Origin: a virus
Reading direction: 5' to 3' (one strand)
DNA length: 64,000 nucleotides
Virus record (IMG/VR): IMGVR_UViG_3300045988_087149
Span: 32,001-96,000 of that record
Every line of letters begins with the position of its first letter. Within the stretch, counting starts at the first letter, position 1. Shown here one piece after another: positions 3,804 through 58,699 of this stretch. Both the position numbers and the translations under genes were made by a program. The notes under the pieces were generated by a model, which did no database searches, was not told where the DNA came from, and saw nothing but the letters and a program-made list of their open reading frames with translations.

Positions 3804-5953
3804 TTAATTAACATCTCCTTTAATTCAGTTAATCTATTTTTCTCCTCTTGCACCTTTAATCCCTCTTGAATAGCCGCCTCATCTCCAATCAATATTAGTC
3901 GCTCTTGTGCGCGTGATACCGCTGTATAGCACAAATTACGGCTTAGCATCTTCACATGGCTTCTATCAATCACCACAATTACAGCCTTTGCTTGGCTACC
4001 TTGGCAGCTATGAATAGAAATTGCATATGCCAGCAACGTGTTTTTGATATGCGCCTTGTCAACGATGCAATCGCCGCAATCATATCGCACAATCATATAT
4101 GGCTCTTTTTCATCAGGCACAATTTCCATCACTGTGCCAATATCACCATTTGCTACAAAAGCCGTATTATCATCAACAAGCGGCATAGCATAGTCATTCT
4201 TTTTATTGATTACCTTATCGCCCACCTTGAAATAGATAGGCGTATCATTGACAGTATGCCCAACCTTGCTTAATTCATTTGAATTGAATTTGGCTTGAAT
4301 CGCCGCATTGATAGCCAATGAGCCAACATCGCCCTTATTGAATGGTGATAGAATCAGCACATTATCCTTACTATATCCATCTGCTAATAGCCGCGCATAC
4401 TCTTGTTCAATTTGCTTGATTACTAATGTATCAGTTTCAACGAACTTATAATCTGTGAAAGTATCTGTAAGATGGTCATTTACTCCATTTCGTACATCAG
4501 TAGCTATGGTAATAATGCCAGATGTGTTATATCTGAACACCTTAGTCAAGTTACATACAGGAACGATGCCGCTATCAAGCATATCTTCAACAATGTTGCC
4601 ACAAGCAATAGATGCAAGCTGAGATGGGTCGGCTATGAAGATAATCTTTGTGCGATCAGTTACTTGGTCAAATAACATTGATAGCAAATGGACGCTAACC
4701 ATGCCCATCTCATCAATTAGCACATAATCGCCTAGATTATCGCCACAAGTCAAGAACATATGAATCGTGCTTGCTTCACGACCCGTTGCTTCTCTTAGTC
4801 TCTTTGCCGCAATTCCAGTTGGGGATAAGAGGGTATAAGTATAATTATTGGCTTCTAGCATCTCAATGATTGCCTTGGTTGTAGCCGATTTGCCCGACCC
4901 GGCGCTCCCCGTTAACATCATTACATCCTGCTTACAAGCCATCTCAAGAATCTGCGCTTGTTCATCAGTCAGCTCTAAGCCGTCTACATTTGTAAACTTC
5001 TGCCAATCCATAGGATAATAATGTGGATTGGCTATTTTTTTCTTGATAACATCAGCAATATGCTGTTCAGCACTATATGTGGCTTGTAGAGACGTATTTT
5101 GGCTAGACGCGTCATAGTGTACTTGTGCCGCTTTCGTCACAACATCGAGGAGATGATGGACGCATTGAGGGGCTTTGCGCTTGACCATATCAAACAGCAT
5201 TTTGGCTTGCATCCTTGTATTGCCGTCTAGCTCATTATGCTTTAGGGCAGATATAGTAGCCGCCTCACATCGTTCATAGCTATCTAGCCATTGACACGTC
5301 TTTTTGGTTATGGCTCTATCAGCCCTATCAAATGACCACTCAAGCAAGTTAATCATAACAGCATATGGATTGGCGTTTATATCCTTGCTAAACCCATATA
5401 CATTTTTATATGTCGCGGCGATTTTGTTTATGTCCTCATCATGCTCAATGCCCCAAGCATATGTTTCGCCCATAAATTCAACACGCTTATTGATTGTCTT
5501 GATTTTATCAATATATCGGGGCAATAGCACTTTGCCTACGCCACGAATTTTTTTATAGTCCAGCTTGTCGGCTTCACCATTTAGCACCATACTGACAAAA
5601 TGAGAATATGCGGCATGACATGATTCAGCTTGCCCATTGGTCATTAAGCTGCGTAATGTCTGCAATTCTGCTTTTTCTGTCAGGTTGAATTTTCCATCTT
5701 TAGCTACAAATCCAGCAAAGCCAATGAATTTATAGCTATATTTGTATTTATCATCCACACATGGCTCTATGATACAATCAATAGATTGCCCCATTTTCAG
5801 ATCGGCAATACCAGTTCCTTTTAGGCTGATTGTACCATATTTAGGATGGGTTTCTATTGTTTCGTCCTTAGTGCTGCATGATATAATCGAGAAATTGGAT
5901 TCAGGATTATTGAATATCATGCGCATTGGGGTTAATTTTACTGTTTGCATCAA
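3800..5953 (-). CDS. RecD-like SF1 DNA helicase / exonuclease V alpha-type ATPase
   Basis: 717 aa. Walker A LTGSAGSGKSATTK, Walker B VLIDEMGMV, and C-terminal SIHSCQGSQAKAVIVVI helicase motif. Confidence 0.85.
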   Translation of the reverse strand: MMQTVKLTPMRMIFNNPESNFSIISCSTKDETIETHPKYGTISLKGTGIADLKMGQSIDCIIEPCVDDKYKYSYKFIGFAGFVAKDGKFNLTEKAELQTLRSLMTNGQAESCHAAYSHFVSMVLNGEADKLDYKKIRGVGKVLLPRYIDKIKTINKRVEFMGETYAWGIEHDEDINKIAATYKNVYGFSKDINANPYAVMINLLEWSFDRADRAITKKTCQWLDSYERCEAATISALKHNELDGNTRMQAKMLFDMVKRKAPQCVHHLLDVVTKAAQVHYDASSQNTSLQATYSAEQHIADVIKKKIANPHYYPMDWQKFTNVDGLELTDEQAQILEMACKQDVMMLTGSAGSGKSATTKAIIEMLEANNYTYTLLSPTGIAAKRLREATGREASTIHMFLTCGDNLGDYVLIDEMGMVSVHLLSMLFDQVTDRTKIIFIADPSQLASIACGNIVEDMLDSGIVPVCNLTKVFRYNTSGIITIATDVRNGVNDHLTDTFTDYKFVETDTLVIKQIEQEYARLLADGYSKDNVLILSPFNKGDVGSLAINAAIQAKFNSNELSKVGHTVNDTPIYFKVGDKVINKKNDYAMPLVDDNTAFVANGDIGTVMEIVPDEKEPYMIVRYDCGDCIVDKAHIKNTLLAYAISIHSCQGSQAKAVIVVIDRSHVKMLSRNLCYTAVSRAQERLILIGDEAAIQEGLKVQEEKNRLTELKEMLIK

Positions 5954-12702: not shown

Positions 12703-14171
12703 TTAGCATACACCAACCTTGTCTTAGTTAATTGATAGGGGTTATCAAATTTTGTGGTTACAAAACAATCCTTTGTTCGACCTGTATTTAAATCAAGATT
12801 AAAATAAACCTTAATACCTTGCTCAACCTGCGAAAAGCGCATTTTATAGAGGTGTAGCACGCGATTTGGCTTTACCTTATCAGGATATTTTTCCATCATC
12901 ATATCAGCTATTTCTTGCTCTTTACGGCGCAACGGCATAATTACGCCAGCTACATCGGCCTTGTTCTGAATCGCTCTTGAGCCAGCTGCAACGCCGCTAT
13001 CCATAATTTCCTGTGTCGTAGCATTAGCATTGACCTGAGTAAATGTCAAGACGGCTATATTATATTCAACAGCTAAATCCTTGAGCTTACTTGCTATACC
13101 AGATAGCACCTGATCTGAGCGAGTAGATACGCCATTCTTTTTAGCTAAATCGCTTGATACAGATGAGGATTCAACGATATAATCATAACAGAGATAGCCT
13201 ACTTGCTTATTGACCACATAATCTTTTACATATGATTCAATTAAATCAACAGTATAATTAGGCATAGTGACGATATATAGTTTGGATTCATGCAGGATTT
13301 TAATAGCCTCATCTACACGTTCTTCTTCGCCTTCTTCATACCGCCCATTCAAGATACTAAAGCATGGTACGCCGCTAATTGTAGCCACAATCTTAGGCGT
13401 GATTTCAGTATCACCAGCCATCTCAAATTGGAGATATAAGCCAGCCTTATGCTGATAACATGGATTATCTATATATTGCTCCTTATCTACATCATAGATT
13501 CTAGGACAACATACTTGCACAAGATTAGCCAAGCCAATAGTTGATTTGCCTACACCCGAACCAACTGAATAGATGGATAGTTGCCCCGGAATCCAGCCTC
13601 TAGCCGCTGTGTTTAGATATTCACTAAAGGTCGTTGCGCCAAATAGCGGCTCTGCCTTGAAGCCCTCCTTAACTGCCTCAAATCCATCACCAGCTTTTAG
13701 CTCATCTATATCCTTGTCTTTATAGAATTGCTTCTTTATAGCTATCTGCTGTGCGTCAAAATATTGTACTATATCCTCTATAGTTGCTTTATCATCTTGC
13801 TCAAATTTGTCTACATTGTAGCCAGCATTTTTATATGAACGGAGTAAGGTGGCGCGGCGCGTGTTGTTGTAATAGACCTCAAAATTTCCTACAGTAGCAA
13901 GCTGCTTGACTGTATCAATAAAATCGTCTAGCTGATTTAGCTTGAATATATCCTCTACTTGCTTATTGTTCTTACATAGCATATATAGGTCTAGCGCCGA
14001 TATGGATTCAGCTCCACGTTTAGCCAGAGCAACACAGCCCTGCCACAATCTGAGGTGAAAATCAACCGTGAAATCGTCACGGCTTAGAGGGTACTTGTCA
14101 GAAATAGCAAGAGAGGGTTTGATTAGCAAACAGCCTAATAGCAACCTAACAGAATTTTGGTCATAGAGCAA
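12699..14171 (-). CDS. dnaB: DnaB-type replicative helicase
   Basis: 490 aa. Walker A SVGSGVGKST in a RecA-like C-terminal domain, with a DnaB-like N-terminal domain. Confidence 0.9.
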   Translation of the reverse strand: MLYDQNSVRLLLGCLLIKPSLAISDKYPLSRDDFTVDFHLRLWQGCVALAKRGAESISALDLYMLCKNNKQVEDIFKLNQLDDFIDTVKQLATVGNFEVYYNNTRRATLLRSYKNAGYNVDKFEQDDKATIEDIVQYFDAQQIAIKKQFYKDKDIDELKAGDGFEAVKEGFKAEPLFGATTFSEYLNTAARGWIPGQLSIYSVGSGVGKSTIGLANLVQVCCPRIYDVDKEQYIDNPCYQHKAGLYLQFEMAGDTEITPKIVATISGVPCFSILNGRYEEGEEERVDEAIKILHESKLYIVTMPNYTVDLIESYVKDYVVNKQVGYLCYDYIVESSSVSSDLAKKNGVSTRSDQVLSGIASKLKDLAVEYNIAVLTFTQVNANATTQEIMDSGVAAGSRAIQNKADVAGVIMPLRRKEQEIADMMMEKYPDKVKPNRVLHLYKMRFSQVEQGIKVYFNLDLNTGRTKDCFVTTKFDNPYQLTKTRLVYAK

Positions 14172-31750: not shown

Positions 31751-32026
31751 TTACTCATTGATTTCTGCCTTTAGTGTGCTTGTCGGCTTAAACGTCAGAG
31801 CATACTTAGCAGGAACTTCAATGGTTTCACCGGTCTGTGGATTACGAGCCGTTCTTGCATCACGCATCTTGGTTGTGAACTTGCCAAAGCCATGAATCAC
31901 CACATCTTCATGCTGAACTAGGCTATGTCTGATATAGTCAATGAACGTATCTACGATCTCAGTTGTATCCTTGACCGTATTTTCTGTGCTGTCTGCAACA
32001 AACTTGACGATTTCTTTCTTGGTCAT
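31751..32026 (-). CDS. hup: HU-type DNA-binding protein (DNABII)
   Basis: 91 aa. MTKKEIV...GFGKFTT..RDARTARNPQTGETIEVPA...FKP is the canonical HU pattern. Confidence 0.9.
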   Translation of the reverse strand: MTKKEIVKFVADSTENTVKDTTEIVDTFIDYIRHSLVQHEDVVIHGFGKFTTKMRDARTARNPQTGETIEVPAKYALTFKPTSTLKAEINE

Positions 32027-32639
32027 AAATTCCTTTTAGTTTCCTTTCAATTTCTAATAAAATTTTATTAAAACAAGTCGCAATGTTCATGCGCATATTG
32101 ACTTGATATATAGGGTTATTGTTCCACTATCAACTACTTACAGGGTCCTCTTACCCAAGCCTTATATTGTTTAGTGGGTTTACAGCCGCTACATCACTAA
32201 ACTAATTTTTTTTGCGTCGAACTCGACACGTCATTTATCCTTGGACTTAATGACGATTTCAGTAATGCGCGGAATAGGCAATCACCGCGCTATGAGTCTG
32301 TAGCCGACTACTCTTTGTGCTTTCTACTTTGAAGCCCGTCAACCTTGAACATTCCGGACTATTCAAGGATTTTTAGAATTTCTACACTCCCTACAAATTC
32401 ATGTTAAATTGAATTTACAGTTGCGCAACCATCTTAAAATCAAGAGTGTGGCGGCGTTGCCTTATAGTATCAGGTGGTCAACCGTCAGCTATTCAGCAAC
32501 TAGCATTACAACCCATAAACTAGACCATTTGCAAGCGACCAACTCTTGGCCTTGGCCTTACAAAGCTAGGATTTTCAGCTTTTCCTCCAGACGTCTATCA
32601 AGTGTGCTTACAATGCTAGTAGAGGCATGATAGACGTTT

Positions 32640-32710
32640 TGACCGAGGCGGGACTTGAACCTGCATTCATCTGCTATGAACAGCTCGCTTACCAGTTAGC
32701 TGACTCAGTC
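32640..32710 (-). tRNA. tRNA-like gene, anticodon CAU (Met/Ile2-type), imperfect cloverleaf, no encoded CCA
   Basis: Acceptor GACTGAG/CTCGGTC, anticodon loop UUCAUAG, T-loop TTCAAGT. It has an extra nt before the D stem and mismatches in the anticodon and T stems. Confidence 0.5.
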
Positions 32711-32804
32711 ATATGGAAATGGGCTTTAAGCATCAACCCATTAGAAGCGTTGGATTCCTATTCAGTTTATTAAGTCGTATGTATCCAACAACCAGTGGAC
32801 TTAA

Positions 32805-32881
32805 TGGTAGCTCAGGTGGAATTCGAATCCACACTTTACGGATTTTGAATCCGCTCCCTCTGCCGATTGGGGTACTGAGCC
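32805..32881 (-). tRNA. tRNA, anticodon CAA (Leu codon UUG) on a short-variable-arm (class I) body, CCA encoded
   Basis: Acceptor GGCTCAG/CTGAGCT (G1-U72), anticodon arm GCGGA-UUCAAAA-UCCGU, 5-nt variable loop, T arm GTGGA-TTCGAAT-TCCAC, then A73-CCA. Confidence 0.65.
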
Positions 32882-33357
32882 ATATTATCTCAAGCCGACT
32901 TCCTACCTCATAGCTATTTCTAGCATCGACTCGTGAATGATGTTTACATAATATCCTTATATCACCTTTGCCGTTATGTTTTTGCCCTCATGCTAACGGA
33001 ACACGCTCAGGCGCGACCCCAATTCTCTAGTCTGTATCTGCCGCTTCTCAAACTCTGCGCAGACCCGCTTCACAGGCGTGATATAGATTTGACGGTTATC
33101 TTCAAATCCGGTCGGATATTATATTATTTGTCAATCTCAATCCCTTTCATTATGCCGAACAGATTGGCCGGTGCGCCCTACTTGGCATCACGGTCTTTCG
33201 CACGACTGCGACCCGCTTTCATGCTTATCTCATTTGTCTTACGCACGTTCCCTATATAATGATGGCTGTTCCTCAAACTCCACTTAGCTGTTTCGTAACG
33301 CCCATCTGAACCATGTCAGGACTCAGCGATTTCAGCACCATCATCTTTACCTTCTCA

Positions 33358-33386
33358 ATTATACCATATTTGATTTTATTTGTCAA
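33358..33386 (-). promoter_or_regulatory. sigma-A-type promoter (leftward) driving the non-coding/tRNA unit
   Basis: AAAAATAATGcTTGACAAAT (33386-33381), 17 bp, TATAAT (33363-33358). Confidence 0.7.
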
Positions 33387-33523
33387 GCATTATTTTTGCA
33401 ATCAACATCCCAACTGCAATACCAGCCGCAAATGAACCTAGACAAGATAGTATAATAATCATACACTAATAATCAATAAATTCTCCTAAACTCTTTACCC
33501 TACAACTTACCCTACTTAATCAA

Positions 33524-33763
33524 CTAATCTGAATTTTCTTCATTATTAATCAATGATTTTTTTGCCATACGAGCTGATTTGAGCCGTTCTGCCGCAGCTT
33601 GTTTCTGTTCATCGGTCATTGAGCGGGTACGGAATGGATTGTTGCCTAGGCGAAATGGGTACAGATTGCAATCATGGATAACACAATTCTTTACTTCATA
33701 AGCTGAGCCACAACTACATTCCAAACAATGCTGGCGAATGGCTTTTAATGGAGATTTTTCCAT
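33524..33763 (-). CDS. zinc-ribbon protein (79 aa)
   Basis: CLECSC...C..HDC, with GAGGTGA upstream. It is one of only four ORFs I saw that end in TAG. Confidence 0.55.
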   Translation of the reverse strand: MEKSPLKAIRQHCLECSCGSAYEVKNCVIHDCNLYPFRLGNNPFRTRSMTDEQKQAAAERLKSARMAKKSLINNEENSD

Positions 33764-33781
33764 ATTATCACCTCATTCTCA

Positions 33782-34039
33782 TCAAGCATTATAGCTTGAA
33801 CATACGATGTATGGCTTATCTACGTTAAGATTTACTTCTTCAATATGAATTTCACCTTGAAAATCCTCAAAATCAATACGATCTTCATAATTATTATTTC
33901 CACCCACATCAACGACACGACAGTTATACTCATCGATGCTAATACGATTTCTGATTTCATCTTCGCTGTTTGCTACACACACAAATGAATCATAAGTGCC
34001 ATAATCACATTTGTCTACCCATACTTTGAATACTTTCAT
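33782..34039 (-). CDS. hypothetical phage protein (85 aa)
   Basis: GAGGTGATAAT upstream of the ATG; follows the tRNA. Confidence 0.55.
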   Translation of the reverse strand: MKVFKVWVDKCDYGTYDSFVCVANSEDEIRNRISIDEYNCRVVDVGGNNNYEDRIDFEDFQGEIHIEEVNLNVDKPYIVCSSYNA

Positions 34040-34070
34040 ATTATCACCTCGTTATATTTAGATTTTATCA

Positions 34071-34163
34071 TGGTAGCGGCGCAGAGGGTCGAACTCTGAT
34101 TTTGCCCCAATCTAGAGCTAAACTGGGTATAGGCCAGCTGGCTTACCATTAACCGACACCGCC
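34071..34163 (-). tRNA. tRNA-like gene with long variable arm (class II body), anticodon loop CCUAUAC (UAU by standard numbering, C33), CCA encoded
   Basis: Acceptor GGCGGTG/CGCCGCT (G1-U72), D arm GGTT-AATGGTA-AGCC, anticodon stem GCTGG/CCAGT, 23-nt variable region with a GCTC/GGGC stem, T arm CAGAG-TTCGACC-CTCTG, then A73-CCA. Confidence 0.6.
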
Positions 34164-48830: not shown

Positions 48831-48859
48831 TTGACAAATACTGTAATATATGGTATAAT
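48831..48859 (+). promoter_or_regulatory. sigma-A-type promoter (rightward)
   Basis: TTGACA (48831-48836), 17 bp, TATAAT (48854-48859). Confidence 0.65.
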
Positions 48860-48981: not shown

Positions 48982-49125
48982 TTGTGGAGCGAAATGAGCT
49001 ATAACTGGTATGTATCGAAAGATACGGAGCCAGAAGTATGGGATGATGAATATGAGCCAACTGAGCGTGATTGGGCGCTTTGGATATATGGTAGTTCAGA
49101 GAATGAATTAGAGGTGATTTTTTGA
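48982..49125 (+). CDS. small acidic protein (43-47 aa), coupled to the RNAP gene
   Basis: GGAGGTG upstream of TTG 48982 and ATG 48994. The stop TGA overlaps the TTG start at 49122 (TTGA). Confidence 0.4.
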   Translation: MWSEMSYNWYVSKDTEPEVWDDEYEPTERDWALWIYGSSENELEVIF

Positions 49126-50723
49126 GCCTACAGACGCAAATTTATTTGCATTCAGTGGACACGTCATGTTTTTATGACGACAACGAAATGGCACTACATA
49201 GACGGCTTGTTCGGTTATATTCGTTGCGCAAGCGATGGAAGGATGATGGTAAACCAGATTGGCACATCAAGTCTGTAAATCGTTTGCTTAAAAAAGAAAA
49301 GGCGCGACTATCTGAATTGCTTGATAATGCTGTGAGTCGAAATGTAACTAGAGAATTGCGTCAAGATGCTGTGACCGATAAGACGGTTGTTAATTTATTT
49401 GAATCTGATCTAACGCGAAGCTTAGGGCTTGAGCCATTCAAGTTGACCGATGAACTATTCATCATTAACGTGTTTTTCTTTCAAGTATTTAACAATCTAG
49501 TTCATCAAGGATTTATCTACAATGGTGAAAAATATTTGTTCCTTACAGCATCAGCAGGACAGATAAGGACGAAACGAGCAGTATTCGTTAAAGAATCGTC
49601 GTTTAAGCGCATTGAGCAAAAATTGATGTGCGGCTTGACCATAGACGAAATCAATGAGCGGGGAGGCATGAATCAGAATAAATTCCTTGCTTATTTGGCG
49701 CTTATGAACTCTGCTACAGATGTTTGGCAAGATTTTGACATTGACAAATCAGTTGTAGTAGATGATTGGGAAACAGCTGTTCCGGGATTGGTTGACCACA
49801 TTGATGGCGTATCGTATGAGATTCGGCGCGAAATGACAGAGACAATGATTCCTCATATGGACGGATGCGGCATCATGCTTAATGAAACAACAAGAATGGT
49901 GCGTATGCCATGGGTAAAGGGATTACTTGTTACATTTCCATTTGACAAGTTTATCAAAGAGAAATGCGGAGGTGAAGCGACTGTAATAGATATTTATGGC
50001 TATGAGCATAAAATCATAGAGGAAGATATACGGTATATATTTACAAAGAGCCAATTCAAGCTATGGAAATTTTATGATTCGTGGGATTGCTATAAGGCGC
50101 GATTCAAAAATTTTGGATGTAATGCCTGTTATTGCAATATAGAAGAGCCTTATATTCCAAAGAGCCGCATCAACTATCAGATGCTTCAAACATTGAGCGA
50201 TATGACTGATAATGAGATCGACCGCATCGTTTCTAAGACTGCACAAGAGATTGATGATGTTGGCAAAGATTATCAAGTTACTATGCGGCTACTTGGCGCA
50301 ACAGAGAACAACCGTTATAAGTCGGCCATGCAAGAGGCGTTGTTGATATATCCTGAGTTGTTTAAGGATTCATATAATCGAGAAATTCTGAAGCAGACTA
50401 AAAAGAGTTTAGTAAAGCAAGCTAAGGGCGGGCGGCTTAGAGTAAATGGTAAATACCTTTTTTTAGCGCCTGACCTATATGCGTTTTGTGAATGGTTGTT
50501 CCTAGGCGAACAAAACCCGCAAGGATTGCTTGCAGATGGTGATGTATATACAAACCAATATCGAGATGAAGAAACGTTGGCTTGTTTGCGTTCGCCGCAT
50601 CTATATCGAGAATGGGCAATCAGGACAAATCGACGCAGCTTAGAGCTTGATTATTGGTTTGGTGGAACTAAGTGTATATATACTAGCTGTCATGATTTAA
50701 TCAGTAGATACTTAATGTTCGAT
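49122..50723 (+). CDS. YonO-like single-subunit (two-barrel) RNA polymerase, exon 1
   Basis: 534 codons from a TTG start (GAGGTGA upstream), ending ...SRYLMFD. Joins exon 2 to give MFD-CDGDKALVV, a beta-prime-like DxDGD motif. Total length is about 857 aa. Confidence 0.6.
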
Positions 50724-51690
50724 TAGTTAGTCGCAGTCGAACCCTATGGAAACATAGGGATATAAAACGGTGTGAAGGCGTAAATGCGCCATGTCAGAAA
50801 TGGCAACGGGGAAAGTGAGTGCAACCCCGTAGGAAATAGAATGAATGAATTATTAAACTATAAGGAGGTGGAAAAATGTATAAAGAAGGAATTTATTGCC
50901 GTTGTGCATATCGAGTAAATGAAAATGGAGATTGTTATACACAAAATGGCAAATTTGAGTGGGTACATAGAGAGTGGCGATATAACAGTGATGGGTATGC
51001 TGTTGTATCAGCTTGTGGTCTAAAGCCAGACGGTACTAAGACATTCCGCTCACTTCATGTTCATGTATTAGTTGCGAGAGAATTTGTTGATGGATGGTTT
51101 GAAGGCGCAGAAGTAAATCATAAAGATTTTAACCGTGCTAATCCTGCTTGGTGGAATCTTGAGTGGTTAAGTCATAAAGATAATATTGCTTATTCGCATA
51201 ACGCTGGTAATTATAAAGGGCGGTTTGGTGAGGACAATCCAAACTATGGTAATGACACGCTACACAAGAGATACGTCGCCGAGCCTGAATTTGCCAAAGA
51301 AAAGCAGTCTCGGCCAAGAGGACAAAATGGACGTTCTGTGAAATGCTTATTATATTGTCATCAAAATATGTGTTTTGAGCATTGGTTTGATTGCCAGCGC
51401 GACGCAGTTGATTTTCTTATTGACTATAATGTCGTAAAATCAACTTGTAATAAAGAGAGTATAATTAGCAAGCTGAAACAAGAAGATGGATATAAGGGCT
51501 GGCATCTTATTCAAGATAAATAATTCATTCATTTAAAACCTCTATCGACTATCGAAAGGATATAAATCAACCGTGTGGGTTGATTTAGAATAACTGAGTA
51601 GAGTAGGAAATGGGTGAAATTCCCATCTCCGAAGCGCACCGAGCCTAAACGGGAAACCGCATGGTTATGATATAGTCAGTAACTCCTACG
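50724..51690 (+). mobile_element. group I intron with internal HNH endonuclease ORF
   Basis: P1 forms between exon GTTCGAT (50717-50723) and intron GTCGAAC (50736-50742), with a U-G pair at the splice site. A GAAA-capped hairpin lies at 50743-50758. The last intron nt is G (51690). Further perfect stems occur at 51570-51590 and 51610-51635. Confidence 0.7.
50876..51523 (+). CDS. HNH homing endonuclease (intron-encoded)
   Basis: 215 aa with AAGGAGGTG upstream. HNH core VHVLVAREF...EVNHKDFNRANPAWWNLEWLSHKDNI. Confidence 0.8.
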   Translation: MYKEGIYCRCAYRVNENGDCYTQNGKFEWVHREWRYNSDGYAVVSACGLKPDGTKTFRSLHVHVLVAREFVDGWFEGAEVNHKDFNRANPAWWNLEWLSHKDNIAYSHNAGNYKGRFGEDNPNYGNDTLHKRYVAEPEFAKEKQSRPRGQNGRSVKCLLYCHQNMCFEHWFDCQRDAVDFLIDYNVVKSTCNKESIISKLKQEDGYKGWHLIQDK

Positions 51691-52662
51691 TGCGACGGAG
51701 ATAAGGCGCTTGTAGTCAAAGACCGTACTTTGTCTACAGTTGCCAAACGCAATATGCAAGATATAGTTCCTTTAGCATACGATCTCAAAAAAGCTAAGGG
51801 CGGCTTGTTAAATCCAGACAGTATGTATAATGGAATGGTAAATGCTTATACTAAGGGAAATATCGGGCCGGTTAGTAATAATATTACAAAAATATGGAAT
51901 AGTGGTGAAATTACACAAGAAGAACTAGATGTAGTAAAATGGCTTTGTTTTGAGAATAACGCTGTTATAGATTGCGCTAAAACGCAATGGCTACCAGAAC
52001 GACCGAAACAAATTAATAACACAATCAAGAAATATACAAAAGCTCGTGTTCCCAATTTCTTTCAATATGCCAAAGACAAAGACCCAGATACCCAAGTAGA
52101 ACCGTCCAACAATTCCACGATGAATCGTATATCAGCCAAAATTCCTGCTTCCAGAATCCGCTATAATAGCAAGATTGGGAAATTCGACTGGACGATGCTG
52201 ATAAATAAATCAGTTGATTATACCACTAGAGAAAATTCACCAATCGTCGAACGGTATAATTGGTGGATGTGGAATCAGCGCCGATTTGATTATGGCGATG
52301 ACCCGCATATCAATGAGGACGATTTATATAAATATCGCTGCATTGCACAAGATATAGTGGAATATAGCAATAAGCCGCTAGATGTTGTTGTTAATAGCTT
52401 AGTTGCTTATTTATATACGGTCAAAAAATCAAGCAATAAGAAAATGCTGTGGGCTTGTTTTGGTTGGACGATTGTAGAGAATTTGAGAATCAATACGGCG
52501 CAACTTAATCCAATCTGCCTCATTTGCGGTAAGCGGTTTAAGCCGCGTGATGTATGCCAACATTATTGCTCTGAGGAATGCTACAAGAAAGCAGATAATC
52601 AGCGGCGCACTGAATCGCGCGAAGCTTCACCTGTCCGCACGGGGGATATGTTAAAACAGTAG
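51691..52662 (+). CDS. YonO-like RNA polymerase, exon 2
   Basis: The frame is open from 51676. CDGDKALVVKDRTLSTVAKRNMQDIV... The track TTG at 51730 has no SD. Ends in TAG 52660-52662. Confidence 0.6.
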   Translation, partial: CDGDKALVVKDRTLSTVAKRNMQDIVPLAYDLKKAKGGLLNPDSMYNGMVNAYTKGNIGPVSNNITKIWNSGEITQEELDVVKWLCFENNAVIDCAKTQWLPERPKQINNTIKKYTKARVPNFFQYAKDKDPDTQVEPSNNSTMNRISAKIPASRIRYNSKIGKFDWTMLINKSVDYTTRENSPIVERYNWWMWNQRRFDYGDDPHINEDDLYKYRCIAQDIVEYSNKPLDVVVNSLVAYLYTVKKSSNKKMLWACFGWTIVENLRINTAQLNPICLICGKRFKPRDVCQHYCSEECYKKADNQRRTESREASPVRTGDMLKQ

Positions 52663-53707: not shown

Positions 53708-54860
53708 GCTGCTAGATAGCAAGTTGATTGACTTACAGGAATGGACGGCTCGTTGTCTTGGTGAAGATTATAGGGGCGTTTGGAGCGAGGAGTATTTGCG
53801 GCGTTGTGCCGTATTTGTTCGCAATATGCTAAATGGTGCAGACGATTATGAATCAGATGAAAAGGACACTAATATTCTATCACAGCTTAGAGAGGCTAAG
53901 CAGGAACTAGAGAAAGAACGTAAGAAATTACAGAGTGAGAATATTCAATATGTTCAGAATAAGAGATTTGACGCAAGAGCAGAATTGATTCAAGAAAAGA
54001 TTGCTGAGTCAATTAAGAACCTTGAGCCGTTTACTATCCGCGAGTTCAACAAGTTACCACAAACGAATGTAAGTGGGCTTCTTTGTATTTCTGACCTTCA
54101 TGCTGGTTCAACGTATGAAATCAAGGGTGCATATAATGAAATTGTAAATAAGTACGATTTTGGCATTATGAGGGCGCGGCTTGATGGGTTGCTTAACAAG
54201 ATGTGCAATGATGATAACTGCATTTGGCTAGATGACATTACGGTTGCTGTGCTTGGTGATTGCGTAGAGAATATTCTACGCACATCTAGTCTAGCTAAGC
54301 TGAGAGAACCGGTTATTGATACAGTTATCAAGTTGTCTGAATATCTAGCTGATTGGTTTGTTGAATTGCACGACCGACTTGAAATTCCTGTTAATGTGGT
54401 GATGGTTGGTGGTAATCATGATGTGTGCCGCCCATTGACCTCTAAGCCACAGTTTGAGGAGGAAAATCTAGGTAAAATCATTGTATGGTATCTACAAGAG
54501 CGGCTAAAATCAGCAGATGGAATTACTGTAGACGATTACACAGATTGCGCTATTAAATACATTAAGAACAATGCAATCATGCTTCATCATGGAGATGGCG
54601 GTGATGTAGCTGAAACAATGCGATATTTTGAAAATTTATATAATATTGACATTGACGAGTGCTATGTTGGACATCTACACCGACAAGAAATGAAGAACGC
54701 TGGTATTACTGAGTTAGGTGATAAACTGTGTTGGCGCGTTGGCTCGGTATGTGGTGTTGATGGATTTGCAAAGTCTATTCGTAAAGCATCAAGACCGTCT
54801 TGTATGTTTACTACATATTCAGAAGATGGTGCAGAGTGGCGTAAAACATTTTATCTTTAA
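53676..54860 (+). CDS. calcineurin-like metallophosphoesterase (Mre11/SbcD-type fold)
   Basis: ISDLHAG, LGDCVEN, GGNHD, HHGDGG and GHLH motifs in the canonical order. Confidence 0.75.
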   Translation: MNLQKIRQATELLDSKLIDLQEWTARCLGEDYRGVWSEEYLRRCAVFVRNMLNGADDYESDEKDTNILSQLREAKQELEKERKKLQSENIQYVQNKRFDARAELIQEKIAESIKNLEPFTIREFNKLPQTNVSGLLCISDLHAGSTYEIKGAYNEIVNKYDFGIMRARLDGLLNKMCNDDNCIWLDDITVAVLGDCVENILRTSSLAKLREPVIDTVIKLSEYLADWFVELHDRLEIPVNVVMVGGNHDVCRPLTSKPQFEEENLGKIIVWYLQERLKSADGITVDDYTDCAIKYIKNNAIMLHHGDGGDVAETMRYFENLYNIDIDECYVGHLHRQEMKNAGITELGDKLCWRVGSVCGVDGFAKSIRKASRPSCMFTTYSEDGAEWRKTFYL

Positions 54861-54862
54861 TA

Positions 54863-54891
54863 TTGACAATCAATAGATTGTGTGATATAAT
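54863..54891 (+). promoter_or_regulatory. consensus sigma-A-type promoter driving a non-coding RNA
   Basis: TTGACA (54863-54868), 17 bp, TGaTATAAT (54886-54891 is the -10 box). It starts 3 nt after the upstream stop codon. Confidence 0.7.
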
Positions 54892-54897
54892 ACAACC

Positions 54898-55968
54898 ATG
54901 GAATTGCGGCTAATATCTGCGGATTTAGTCTTGGCTTGGGGATGTGTTCTACAAGTTCCATAATAGAGGAAAAGCCTGAACGCTTTTCGCTGTCATATGA
55001 CAGAATTTATCTTATCGGTAGCGTCAGTTGCAAATGGCGCTACCACCCTTAAATTGATTCATTCTCTACTAGGTGATAGCTACGGCTGTGTTGATCATGC
55101 TTGTGGGGCGATTGACCCACCTAGCAGAGTTGAATATAATCGAGCCGTAATCTGCAATTCAGCAGAGCCTAATACGAGCATGACATTGGTTGTGGCGGGC
55201 TATGTCAATATAGTATCGTAAACTGTATCGGCTCAGTTTTCATCTCGACCACGCAATCTCTAAAGTATCCCGTTTAAGTGAGCAACGGCGAATCTGTAAA
55301 TGGGCGTGTTGGAGATTTATAACCGACAAAATCTTATTCATCCTGCCTTTCTCGAATCCTTGCGTTTATACGTGGGGTATTGATGTAGAGAGGGTGGGTA
55401 TTCATCTCATGTACCATGCGTACAAGGAGTTCTTGAAGTCGTTAATAGCGGCTTTTGCAAAATCCTATCCTAGACGATAGGCGTATAGCAACATGTGTGT
55501 TATATGAGCGTATGAAGCATAGAACCGGGTTGTCTTTCGGCAATATGTGGACGTTTACATTGGGTTTTCAGCATACCGCAAGGCAACAAGAAAATGCTGA
55601 CCGACTATGCGGTAAAGATGGGACAACAGGTATCATAGGAGCCAATGACGAACCATATAAAACATAACAGGGAGTGGCGCTCGATACCGGCATGCGCTTG
55701 ATAAATACCGGACATTAATGAGTCCATAGGTAAGGACGTTAAAACTGCCTGTCGCTACTACTCATTGGCGGCTATGAATATCCGAAAGGAGGTCACTATT
55801 CTCTTGAATTATCCACTGGTTTATCCGAAGCATAATTAAAGAAAGGATGGTGGTCAGAGCCCATTGGCTCATATCTACAATAAGCCCAACTCAATGGGAA
55901 CTGTTGTTTAACTGAATATTGTACATTGACAAATACGAAGCAGCTGAGAGCAATCTTGGCTGCTTCGT
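54898..55968 (+). ncRNA. about 1.07-kb structured non-coding RNA candidate
   Basis: All three frames are saturated with TAA, TAG and TGA, and there is no SD-preceded ORF. Visibly GC-richer than the flanks. Perfect helices at 54990-55003, 55017-55044, 55464-55481 and 55860-55898. Bounded by a promoter and a hairpin. Confidence 0.55.
55935..55968 (+). terminator. terminator-like hairpin closing the non-coding RNA locus
   Basis: Perfect 10-bp stem ACGAAGCAGC/GCTGCTTCGT with a 14-nt loop. The following U-tract is weak (CATATTTAT). Confidence 0.45.
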
Positions 55969-56010
55969 CATATTTATAGGAAAATAAACGGAACGGAAAG
56001 GAATGAGAAT

Positions 56011-56838
56011 ATGTTTTGCCCATATTGTGGCAAAGAAAAGCAAGATAGCCAATTCTATAAAAGCCCAATCAAAACGGGCGAATATATTAATCCATGCAAA
56101 TCATGTGTGACTGAGCTATATAAACAAGCTCTTGAATCTACTAAAGACCAAGGCGCGGCATTATGGTCAACTTGTATGCAGACTGGCATTCCTATGAGAC
56201 GGGCTGAATATACTGCTTGTCTTGACACCCTAGAAAAGGCAGCTAAAGGTAAAAAGCCTAGTTTATTTATGTTGTATCATACATATTTGTCTACATCGCC
56301 AGATAAACTAACAGGTGTGTGGGATAGTGATATGGAGTTGTCTAATTTCAAGGATTTGGGCGATGTTGCTAAAGGCGAAACTGATGAGGTGGCGCTAAAA
56401 GCAAGGTGGAATCGTCAGTGGGGCACTGATTATGAAGAATGGGAATATCAGTGGCTCGATGATATTTTTGAACGATATACAGAAGAAATTCTTGATATGG
56501 ACACAGCTAAAGAGATGACATATAGAAATCTATGCCAAGCCAATCTACGCAAATTCAAAGACCCTACAGATAAAGATGCTGGCGATGAAATTCTTAAATT
56601 GATGAAGGTGCTAAAACTAGACCAATTTAAGGAAAATAAGCAGAGCGATACTGAAAAATTTATAGAGCGCATGGCATGGAATATTGAAAATACAAAACCA
56701 TGCGAATGTGAGGATTTGAATAAGTATAAGGATTTTAGTGGATTTGAGCTGACATGGAAAGATATTTTAAGATGTTGTAAGAATTTGGTTGGGGGCGGGC
56801 GCGAATATCCAGATTTACCCTCAGATCAAAAGAGATGA
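56011..56838 (+). CDS. putative terminase small subunit (positional call)
   Basis: 275 aa with an N-terminal zinc ribbon CPYCG...CKSC. Lies immediately upstream of terL. No motif-level support. Confidence 0.4.
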   Translation: MFCPYCGKEKQDSQFYKSPIKTGEYINPCKSCVTELYKQALESTKDQGAALWSTCMQTGIPMRRAEYTACLDTLEKAAKGKKPSLFMLYHTYLSTSPDKLTGVWDSDMELSNFKDLGDVAKGETDEVALKARWNRQWGTDYEEWEYQWLDDIFERYTEEILDMDTAKEMTYRNLCQANLRKFKDPTDKDAGDEILKLMKVLKLDQFKENKQSDTEKFIERMAWNIENTKPCECEDLNKYKDFSGFELTWKDILRCCKNLVGGGREYPDLPSDQKR

Positions 56839-56854
56839 TGGGTGGTGATATAGA

Positions 56855-58699
56855 ATGAAAAGTCAGATGGGGGGCTTGAGACGCAAGTTCCTTGGAAACC
56901 ACCTAATTACGGCAAAAGCAAAAGAAAACGCAATGAAAGATGCGCAGAAAGAGGAAAATGCTATAGAGTGGCTGACTTTATTCTAGTTACGCCGAAATTG
57001 GCATATATATGTTGATTTAGTTCTTGGTATCAAGTTGCGCCCATTTCAGATGATAATGATATATCTGATGGGCATATCAGATGTATTTTTTGCAATATGT
57101 TCTCGTGGCTTATCCAAAACCTTTATTGTAGGTCTAGGTAATATTGTAAAGATGAATCTTTACCCTTACACAGAGGCTATCATTACATCATCAACTGTTG
57201 CACAGGCAAACAAGATGGTTGAAGATAAAATAAGAGACGAGTTGATTAAAAAATTATCTCCTTATCTCTTATATATGTATGAGCATGAATATTTGGTTAT
57301 TACTAAACCTGAAGATGGTTATAGAATAGAGAATAAACTTAATGGCTCGACTTTGCGTGTGTTACCATGTCAAGATAGCTCCCGTGGTCCAAAAGCAACA
57401 ATTCTTACATATGAAGAAGCCCGTTTGCTCAAAAAAGGTATGGTTGATTCCGTCTTTGAGAAGATGGCGCATCCAAGACAAGCCAAATATCTTAGCAACC
57501 CTGTATATGGCAATAATCCCCGTTGGAAAGAGGAATGTCAACATATCTATATCACATCTGCTAGATATAAGTTTGAGTGGTTTTGGTTATTATTCAAAAA
57601 GACATTTACTCGTATATTTACCGACACCAAAGTAAGATGCAATATTTTTGCCGGTGATATATTTATGGCTATTGATAATGGTTTTAAGACATGGGCTGAT
57701 TATTGGAATGGCAAGGCTGGCGGCGAAATGGACTTCAGAATGGAAGATTTGAACGAGATGATTTCAGAGGGCGATGATGCGTTCTTTAATCTAAAGTCAT
57801 TCAAAGAGAACCAAATTATTGAGCGTTGTTTCCGTCCATCTACTGCATTACAATTCTTTGCTGGAGAACAACCTAATTTCCCAGAAAAGAAAGAGGATGA
57901 AATACGTATCTTATCTATGGACTTGGCATTTGCAAATACCACAGGTTGTACAAAGAACGATAATACAATTATTGCTCTTATGTCGGCTCATTGGGATAGT
58001 AAAAAGAATAGATTCGAGCGGCACGTTGATTATATAGAGGGACATGATGCATCTGATACAATCGGTGCATCTGATAGATTTAGATATCTCAAATGGGTAT
58101 ATGATGCAGATTATTGTCTGTTTGACTCGCGTAGCGGCGGTGAGGTAATAGCAAATCACCTTACAGAACCACTACCAAGACCAGATTTGGGCGTAAGATG
58201 GGATTCGCGCGGCTTTGGATTGGCTGATAAATATCAGGTTGTATCTCAAGCCAAGATTGATGATTATCATAGCCGCACAGTTGATAAAAATGCTGTACCA
58301 TGCTTAATACCGATTATTGGTACTCCTGAATTGAACAGTAGCGGGTGGTTGTCACTACGTAAACAGCTTGAAACCAATAATATGAAATTCCTTATTTCTA
58401 TGCAAGATTATCAGAACGAGCTAACAGATAGCGGTGAATATTATCAATATACTGCTGAAGAATTAGCTAATCAGCTTGAGCCGTATGGTCAAACTGATAT
58501 GATGGTTATAGAGGCTGTTAATCTCAAGACAGTTATCAAGCAGGATAAAATCAAACTAGAAGAACCACGCACAGGAACTAAGGATAGAATTGTAACTATT
58601 ATGTATGGTAACTATATTATTGATTTAATTGAGAACGCATGGCAACAACAATTACAAGAAGATGAGTTTGATATAGACTCTATCCAGCTTGTTTGGTGA
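56855..58699 (+). CDS. terL: terminase large subunit, reading frame interrupted by one in-frame TAG (56984-56986)
   Basis: Walker A AICSRGLSKT, Walker B-like ILTYEEA, and a nuclease-domain-sized C-terminus. ATG 56855 (GGTGGTGA upstream) opens 43 codons in the same frame. The conserved-looking LGIKLRPFQ lies between the TAG and the first canonical start (TTG 57035, which has no SD). Confidence 0.7.

Follow-up and report, generated by a model that had tools for sequence, protein, structure and literature searches.

The 64,000-nucleotide (nt) stretch of viral DNA analysed here, hereafter the window, corresponds to positions 32,001 to 96,000 of IMG/VR virus record IMGVR_UViG_3300045988_087149. 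Judged by its gene content and order, the window belongs to an SPbeta-like phage. At the boundary between the polymerase and DNA-processing genes and the packaging genes lies a gene-free gap of 1150 nt (54861-56010), bounded by the stop codon of a metallophosphoesterase/exonuclease open reading frame (ORF) at 54860 and by the ATG of the next long ORF at 56011. A preliminary description of the window had delimited the same gap, and proposed that host RNA polymerase transcribes it into a structured RNA of about 1.07 kb, either a relative of the giant ROOL and GOLLD RNAs or a new large class. The non-coding character of the gap, its conserved helices, and its consensus promoter stood up to analysis, but the single large RNA did not, since the gap is a mosaic of segments. 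We consider it likely that the gap is a hypervariable, transcribed array of independent small structured-RNA cassettes occupying an accessory slot.

The gene-free gap and its promoter

Stop codons interrupt the three forward frames of the gap 26, 19, and 22 times, with TAA, TAG, and TGA all represented. When any one stop is reassigned, the longest reading does not exceed 107 codons, in agreement with the earlier statement that no single reassignment rescues a gene. The longest plus-strand ORFs code for 74 amino acids (aa; 54997-55221) and 70 aa (55455-55667), and a 90-aa ORF is present on the minus strand. Coding potential was evaluated among relatives, and no three-nucleotide periodicity was found: neither the 74-aa nor the 70-aa ORF had an excess of variable sites at third codon positions (21/17/22 and 22/14/24, respectively), and 52 of 56 indels are frame-breaking, their lengths not being multiples of three. 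Since stops fill all frames, the third-position excess is missing, and nearly all indels break the frame, 54861-56010 is non-coding.

The gap opens with a perfect TTGACA-17-TATAAT promoter with an extended TG element (P1, 54863-54891, plus strand), whose predicted start is near 54898. Perfect sites of this type occur 20 times in the window, while 0.13 are expected, and P1 thus belongs to the phage's own set of host-polymerase promoters. Seventeen of the sites precede the leftward replication and early genes on the minus strand. The plus strand contains only those at 48831 and 48924, both ahead of the phage RNA polymerase gene, and the one at 54863, so P1 is the sole perfect site inside the rightward cluster, as the preliminary description had claimed. 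Most of the perfect promoters in the window read TTGACAA...TG.TATAAT, an unusually uniform set.

The G+C content of the gap is 42.5%, compared to 38.3% for the window, which puts the gap in the top 2.2% of 1150-nt stretches; the G+C excess over the neighbouring DNA, noticed earlier, is real but modest. The four local helices that had been listed (54990-55003, 55017-55044, 55464-55481, and 55860-55898) were all recovered by folding or in a repeat scan. The hairpin said to close the gap, 55935-55968, has 15 pairs in total, of which the 10 at the base are perfect as described. The hairpin is followed by CATATTTATA, and the sequence 3' of it is CAUAUUUAUA. It probably ends transcripts made by host RNA polymerase.

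Small RNA families and exchangeable segments

Positions 54700-56100 were scanned on both strands against all Rfam models with a permissive cmscan (E<=10), and the whole window was scanned at gathering scores. No match to ROOL (RF03087), GOLLD (RF01998), HEARO, OLE, raiA, or pRNA was obtained in 54700-56100, even at E<=10. Instead of the giant RNAs suggested earlier, the permissive scan returned two small families, DUF3800-VIII (about 65 nt) and drum (about 100 nt), and, apart from them, only two chance hits; the whole-window scan agreed. Both families are small RNA motifs described together with DUF3800 genes (Weinberg et al. 2017, PMC5737381).

The DUF3800-VIII match (RF03075; 55337-55404, plus strand) scored 46.0 bits against a gathering score of 40.2, and covered model positions 1-64 of 64; copies in sister phages scored 48-54 bits. 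The match is seen on the plus strand only, and three G-U pairs in its stem would become A-C on the other strand. The window copy keeps the CGAA / CGUU..ACG / UGUAG / GGG core of the motif. It differs from the motif as known in being located inside a multi-cassette array, with no DUF3800 gene nearby and without a U-run of its own after the outer stem. The drum match (RF02958; 55507-55604, plus strand) scored 39.5 bits (E 1.4e-5; gathering score 43) and spans the model end to end, with a 16-nt model stretch deleted. Scores of orthologous copies ranged from 37.6 to 44.9 bits, with 4 of 12 above 43. The window copy shares with known drum RNAs helices that have compensatory support, and differs from them in its score below the gathering threshold, its 16-nt deletion, and the lack of a terminator after it; on these sequence features, it is a divergent phage subtype. 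Drum and DUF3800-type RNAs are expected to have a Rho-independent terminator on their 3' side (Weinberg et al. 2017), but no terminator-like site was found directly 3' of 55404 or of 55604, the only strong one in the gap being the hairpin at 55935-55968.

The gap was compared among sister phages, represented by 26 IMG/VR loci that encode the downstream protein at 67-99% identity. The flanking proteins of these loci (numbered with an L prefix) are 67-100% identical, and the same gap is 258-1506 nt long. Sister phages whose flanking genes are 93-100% identical hold different subsets of about ten segments, which we refer to as M1a, M1b, and M2 to M10. The breakpoints between segments recur (54963/4, 55057/8, 55138/9, 55212-22, 55329-37, 55401-4, 55457-71, 55594, 55657/8, and 55776/7), and coincide with the edges of the Rfam motifs. 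M2, for example, is joined directly to M6 in L002 and L003, is followed by the DUF3800-VIII cassette and then drum in L006 and L009, and leads to drum and then M10 in L010. Two loci, L005 and L006, begin at M1b, and L021 lacks M5 and M6. Finally, L014 and L017 have M10 and 27 nt only, with nothing of 54861-55776. The phages can therefore do without this part of the gap, and the native intergenic region is M10. Segments that are not co-inherited, in a gap of such variable length over the 26 relatives, do not form the new large RNA class that had been offered as the other possibility.

The promoter P1 is likewise an optional module: it is present in 16 of the 26 sister loci, always 2 nt past the exonuclease stop, and no sigma-A-like promoter was found in eight sister loci that have cassettes. 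Genes of HNH endonucleases lie within the slot in L009 (2623-3123) and L025 (2872-3669); the HNH ORF of L009 carries its own copy of P1. The M5 and M6 pair is flanked by direct repeats CAAAATCTTAT and CAAAATCCTAT at 55327-55337 and 55458-55468, and the L021 deletion is exactly as expected from recombination between these repeats.

Other intergenic sites were also found to contain the same families. Sister phages have a second drum copy (~114 nt, 40.1-57.6 bits; 6691-6804 in L013) right after the terL stop and before the portal gene, a site from which drum is cleanly absent in the window (58700), and in other SPbeta-like loci DUF3800-VIII comes before the exonuclease gene. Cassettes are thus found at several intergenic positions. 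Pattern scans of IMG/VR with M9 and M2 gave matches only within the same phage family.

All segments are described here as they read on the plus strand, with fold z-scores calculated against shuffles. M1a (54861-54963) consists of P1 and a leader (54892-54963) with a small hairpin at 54904-54922, and its z-score is only -1.5. A 21-codon ATG ORF that starts at 54898 in M1a shows mostly non-synonymous changes, and its stop is lost in L004. M1b (54964-55057; z-score -4.8) contains three hairpins, at 54969-54988, at 54990-55003, where a T-rich run follows, and at 55017-55044; two of its 22 pairs are compensatory. M2 (55058-55138; z-score -3.3) is a branched hairpin and the most widespread 5' module. 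M3 (55139-55222) was found in 10 loci and has two hairpins, with compensatory changes in 4 of 20 pairs (7 sequences). A second promoter-like site at 55112-55140 (11/12) was rejected as not conserved: the -10 box exists only where M2 meets M3, and the -35 box is variable. M4 (55223-55336) is present in only 4 loci, and its z-score is -0.02.

M5 (55329-55404; z-score -3.5) contains the DUF3800-VIII match, and the cassette limits, 55329-55401, coincide with the motif. M6 (55404-55470; z-score -2.5) forms two hairpins and is conserved out to Bacillus phage SPbeta; 4 of its 17 pairs are compensatory in a set of 16 sequences that includes Bacillus copies, and in the latter the second hairpin is followed by a T-run. 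M7 (55459-55604) has two small hairpins and then the drum match. Covariation in drum was evaluated in the orthologous set alone, as MAFFT misaligned the two drum subfamilies when they were taken together, and no consensus structure resulted. Two adjacent pairs changed in a compensatory manner (UA<->CG and CG<->GC) in 7 of 15 orthologous sequences, and, judged by eye, the 3' helix swaps CAGC/GCUG to GCGG/CCGC. M8 (55605-55657; z-score -0.5) is a short linker seen in 6 loci. M9 (55658-55776) combines an invariant 3' half (55745-55776) with a variable 5' half.

M10 (55777-56010) is a constant segment of 234 nt that is found in all 25 relatives having the slot, and contains the ribosome-binding site of the next gene. 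It also holds a Shine-Dalgarno-like GGAGG (55788-55792), a long (55791-55855) and a small (55857-55870) hairpin, and, at 55935-55968, the terminator-like one. The z-scores of the M10 hairpin and the terminator hairpin are -2.5 and -4.2; two compensatory pairs were found in a GAGCC/GGCUC hairpin of M10, and three in the terminator hairpin. In L017, the latter is exactly inverted (3925-3958), with the stem kept and the loop flipped. Within 55777-55860, about 60 nt hardly vary in any relative, including those with flanking proteins of only 67% identity. This stretch, which includes the GGAGG and an 11-codon TTG ORF (55804-55839), might act for the packaging operon as a 5' stabiliser or as a promoter element. 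The only two variants in the ORF are non-synonymous.

The search for homologues and covariation that the preliminary description had called for thus gave a divided answer: there are compensatory changes in several cassettes, but no architecture shared by the region as a unit. The counts support structure, but are not statistical proof, because the sequences are closely related. M1b, M3, and M6 are conserved hairpin RNAs that are outside Rfam and undescribed, and there are at least three such RNAs in the gap.

Genomic context and association with DUF3800

The phage encodes a YonO-type single-chain RNA polymerase (Pfam RdRP, PHROG 8308) that is 46% identical to YonO of SPbeta and is split between two ORFs, 49122-50726 (PHROG 8308 profile positions 2-550) and 51730-52662 (567-845). 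An HNH endonuclease ORF (50876-51523) is located between the two halves. The split looks like an insertion of an intron or of a free-standing homing endonuclease gene; no Rfam match to a group I intron was obtained there at threshold. The gene order is that of SPbeta (polymerase, HU-like protein, exonuclease, terS-like protein, terL, portal), and the structural genes include members of Pfam families YonB, YomX, YomW, and YomU. If the phage behaves as SPbeta does (PMC5467207), its own polymerase would transcribe the late genes, leaving the early genes to the host enzyme. Proteins encoded in the window were also found on a 97.1-kb metagenomic contig.

A parallel to the gap exists in SPbeta itself, where an unannotated gene-free gap of 1681 nt separates yonN from yonK. 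This gap contains DUF3800-VIII (47.5 bits, above threshold; 13381-13446 of our SPbeta locus, L186, or NC_001884.1 59409-59474, minus strand) and, 60 nt upstream of it, a homologue of M6 (L186 13262-13316) that is 84% identical to window positions 55406-55457. The pair of M6 and DUF3800-VIII recurs in further Bacillus prophage loci. No nucleotide similarity between the window and SPbeta gaps was seen beyond M6. The M6 homology emerged only in a small-database search; no match to the gap was obtained by blastn in distant mode among 50,697 cultured phage records, the cassettes being too short and too diverged for a search of this kind.

According to Forrest et al. (2017, PMC5467207), the YonO late operon of SPbeta is headed by an "unannotated non-coding RNA". 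Their primer-extension primers map to L186 12282-12305 and 12498-12524. The published start of YonO transcription (coordinate 2225998 of strain 168) was placed only approximately, by bracketing with these primers. The primer positions imply that the late transcript starts ~0.9-1.1 kb before DUF3800-VIII and has a non-coding leader of at least 1.2 kb. The SPbeta copies of DUF3800-VIII and M6 thus form part of this leader. The window and SPbeta agree in phage type, gene order, and the presence of a gene-free gap with M6 and DUF3800-VIII. They differ in the position of the gap relative to the exonuclease gene, upstream of it in SPbeta (between yonN and yonK) and downstream of it in the window, and in that the SPbeta gap is read by YonO and not from a sigma-A promoter. 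A long non-coding region that bears cassettes at the boundary of early and late genes is a trait common to these phages.

By the terS-like protein, the closest cultured relatives are Enterocloster phages CB457P1 and PMBT24 (35% identity), neither of which has a comparable gap or an Rfam match. In CB457P1, a gene annotated as an intron-associated endonuclease is located ~2 kb downstream of the terS-like gene. The window's terL ORF has a TTG start at 57035, and its PHROG match begins only at profile position 71; a 43-aa ORF (56855-56986) closely precedes it. A split or a frameshift may affect the N-terminus of terL. On the minus strand, three tRNA genes (Met-CAT, Leu-CAA, and Ile-TAT) were predicted within 32639-34163, and the third prediction is unusually long, at 93 nt.

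A search with the DUF3800-VIII core pattern yielded 100 viral contigs and 37 bacterial genome contigs from several phyla. At the bacterial loci, DUF3800 (PF12686) was the top Pfam family among neighbours, accounting for 15 of the 80 nearest ORFs. When ten nearest ORFs were tested singly, all ten proved to be DUF3800 proteins (268-297 aa), and a hidden Markov model (HMM) built from these proteins detected a DUF3800 gene at 21 of the 37 bacterial loci. In 19 of the 21, the gene is on the opposite strand, tail-to-tail with the RNA; it lies 5-33 nt from the RNA 3' end. In those 19 loci (among L129-L165), DUF3800-VIII either lies antisense to where the mRNA ends or has a bidirectional terminator in common with that mRNA. 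The partner DUF3800 proteins match the PADLOC candidate PDC-M04A, and ORFs neighbouring the RNA over all 37 bacterial loci include restriction, AbiH, and HEPN genes. DUF3800 has an RNase H-like fold and is tied to mobile elements, defence, and CRISPR accessories, its function not being established (PMC10910872, PMC13594972).

The viral loci gave a different picture, with a DUF3800 gene at 2 of 100, of which 89 had at least 900 nt on the relevant side. No DUF3800 match was found in the 74 ORFs of the window or in 10 kb on either side, and no DUF3800 gene in the sister loci, in 89% of the SPbeta genome, or in phage PMBT24. The DUF3800-VIII copy of the window is 86-88% identical, over 66 nt, to DUF3800-partnered copies of Oscillospiraceae, including stem positions that vary freely, whereas its identity to copies of SPbeta-like Bacillus prophages is only ~71%. 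Because of this difference in identity, the sequences point to exchange with DUF3800 loci rather than to vertical descent. Canonical drum copies, found on 34 viral contigs, occupy accessory positions, next to recombinase/endolysin, portal, or PBECR4 nuclease genes; no DUF3800 gene was detected among their neighbours with the DUF3800 HMM or by a Pfam scan of ten representative neighbours.

Proposed function and alternatives

In the arrangement that we favour, an array of exchangeable small RNAs, only the final 234 nt (55777-56010), which hold conserved hairpins, are native intergenic DNA, and an optional P1 together with up to about nine cassettes of 50-150 nt, all in plus orientation, is accommodated between the exonuclease stop and M10. 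Where P1 is present, host RNA polymerase would start near 54898, read rightwards, and stop at the hairpin at 55935-55968. In relatives that lack P1, the array would be read through from upstream, as in the YonO leader of SPbeta. The cassettes would be made as one precursor or leader, because they have no terminators of their own. M10, with its GGAGG and long hairpin, would serve the packaging operon as a possible stabiliser or insulator. What is new here is the arrangement of known small-RNA motifs and undescribed hairpin RNAs in a phage slot.

The array resembles several known systems. Morons of temperate phages are autonomous promoter-to-terminator units inserted between late genes, and the window has similar extra DNA with its own consensus promoter between genes that are adjacent in relatives. 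It differs from morons in that the cargo is RNA, that there are several tandem units, and that the terminator is provided by the constant flank. With ROOL and GOLLD, the gap shares the presence of a non-coding structured RNA in a Bacillota phage, but it is made of exchangeable units rather than one conserved architecture, and matches neither model.

Several observations weigh against the array of functional RNAs. Promoter use, transcript ends, and processing are all deduced from the sequence. The relatives are close and come mostly from one metagenome, so that covariation counts are small and not independent. No two-sided compensatory change was seen among relatives in M2 (31 pairs, changes one-sided only) or M9 (24 pairs, none compensatory), and folds of M4 and M8 did not stand out from shuffles; linkers or debris may be among the segments. 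The drum match in the window is 3.5 bits under the Rfam threshold. The mosaicism could come from recombination by homing endonucleases that visit the slot, and not from selection on cassette content. As for a role in defence, DUF3800 is only a candidate defence gene, and its link to the RNA is hypothetical. The absence of a DUF3800 gene refers to ~84 of the 97 kb of this phage.

A different function for the same segments, possible though in our judgement unlikely, is that of a cis-acting leader or spacer, composed of terminators or insulators that halt host polymerase but not the YonO-type enzyme, of processing sites, or of 5' stabilisers of the packaging mRNA. Such a leader is suggested by the location of SPbeta M6 and DUF3800-VIII within the late-operon leader (PMC5467207), by the hairpin and T-run that end Bacillus M6, by the common orientation of all cassettes and genes, and by M10 itself, where no convincing ORF accompanies the GGAGG-type ribosome-binding signal and a terminator-like hairpin is conserved. 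However, cassettes that are dispensable and vary between near-identical phages would be odd for elements required by an operon, and DUF3800-VIII and drum are found in many unrelated contexts, including bacterial loci where the RNA is antisense to the neighbouring gene. A cis-acting role suits the constant M10 better than it suits the variable part.

A tentative function for the array that we favour, which we regard as rather doubtful, is that of an RNA counter-defence locus. On this reading, phages of several kinds carry orphan copies of RNAs that bacteria encode tail-to-tail with DUF3800 genes. The orphan RNAs (DUF3800-VIII, drum, and the undescribed classes) would act in trans on host DUF3800 systems with an RNase H-like fold, as mimics, antidotes, or decoys of the RNA partner of these systems. 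A decoy or mimic would fit early expression, turnover between strains, the orphan state of phage copies, and their close match to partnered bacterial copies. The model for such a locus is provided by RNA anti-CRISPRs (Racrs), where the RNA part of a host system is carried by phages as an orphan (Camara-Wilpert et al. 2023, PMC10651486). Conceptually, the orphan phage RNA copies without a protein partner are the same; the difference is that inhibition by DUF3800-VIII or drum is hypothetical. The pseudo-ToxI of phage PhiTE is a case similar to RNA anti-CRISPRs.

It is improbable that the variable segments are recombination debris, i.e., non-functional leftovers of homing-endonuclease invasion and repair with hairpins that are decaying terminators. 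The HNH genes in the slot of L009 and L025, the short direct repeats at some junctions (such as CAAAATCTTAT and CAAAATCCTAT at 55327 and 55458), and the lack of a structure signal in M4 and M8 are what debris would look like, but two Rfam family matches, compensatory changes in several cassettes, an M6 common to a gut phage and SPbeta, and invariant parts of M9 and M10 are not.

There is very little to recommend the original proposal of one ornate RNA of ~1.07 kb, ROOL/GOLLD-like or of a new giant class, that extends from P1 to the hairpin and folds as a unit. A perfect promoter and a terminal hairpin do bracket the stretch, helices are many, G+C content is raised, and SPbeta makes a long non-coding RNA at a nearby position (PMC5467207). 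Against this, there is no large-RNA family match at E<=10, segments are gained and lost independently, with 54861-55776 wholly dispensable, P1 is missing from 8 loci that still have cassettes, and two segments belong to autonomous small RNA families, found on their own at other loci. The gap is not a ROOL or GOLLD member, and it is not a new giant RNA.

Small proteins are scarcely credible as the product of the region: the 74-aa and 70-aa ORFs, a leaderless 21-codon ORF at 54898, and an 11-codon ORF at 55804 with a strong GGAGG 11 nt before its TTG are present, but, in addition to the coding test above, the longer ORFs cross cassette junctions that differ among relatives, and the small ones change mostly non-synonymously, one relative losing the stop. 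A packaging role, raised earlier as a speculation, can be practically dismissed, be it as an RNA or as a pac site used by the neighbouring terminase genes, in spite of the position directly upstream of the terS-like, terL, and portal genes. No pRNA match was obtained, the region is absent in L014 and L017, and SPbeta-like phages begin packaging at a point between yonR and yonP that lies upstream of the polymerase gene (10.1101/2021.11.22.469490).

The drum and DUF3800 motifs, which have been without a function since 2017, gain a context as exchangeable cassettes of a phage slot behind a consensus early promoter. The association with the protein splits by genome type (21 of 37 bacterial versus 2 of 100 viral loci), which is the pattern expected of an RNA mimic. 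More generally, a long gene-free, helix-rich stretch in a phage genome need not mean a giant RNA. Since SPbeta of B. subtilis carries both DUF3800-VIII and M6, the question of what these RNAs do for the phage can be approached in a model organism.

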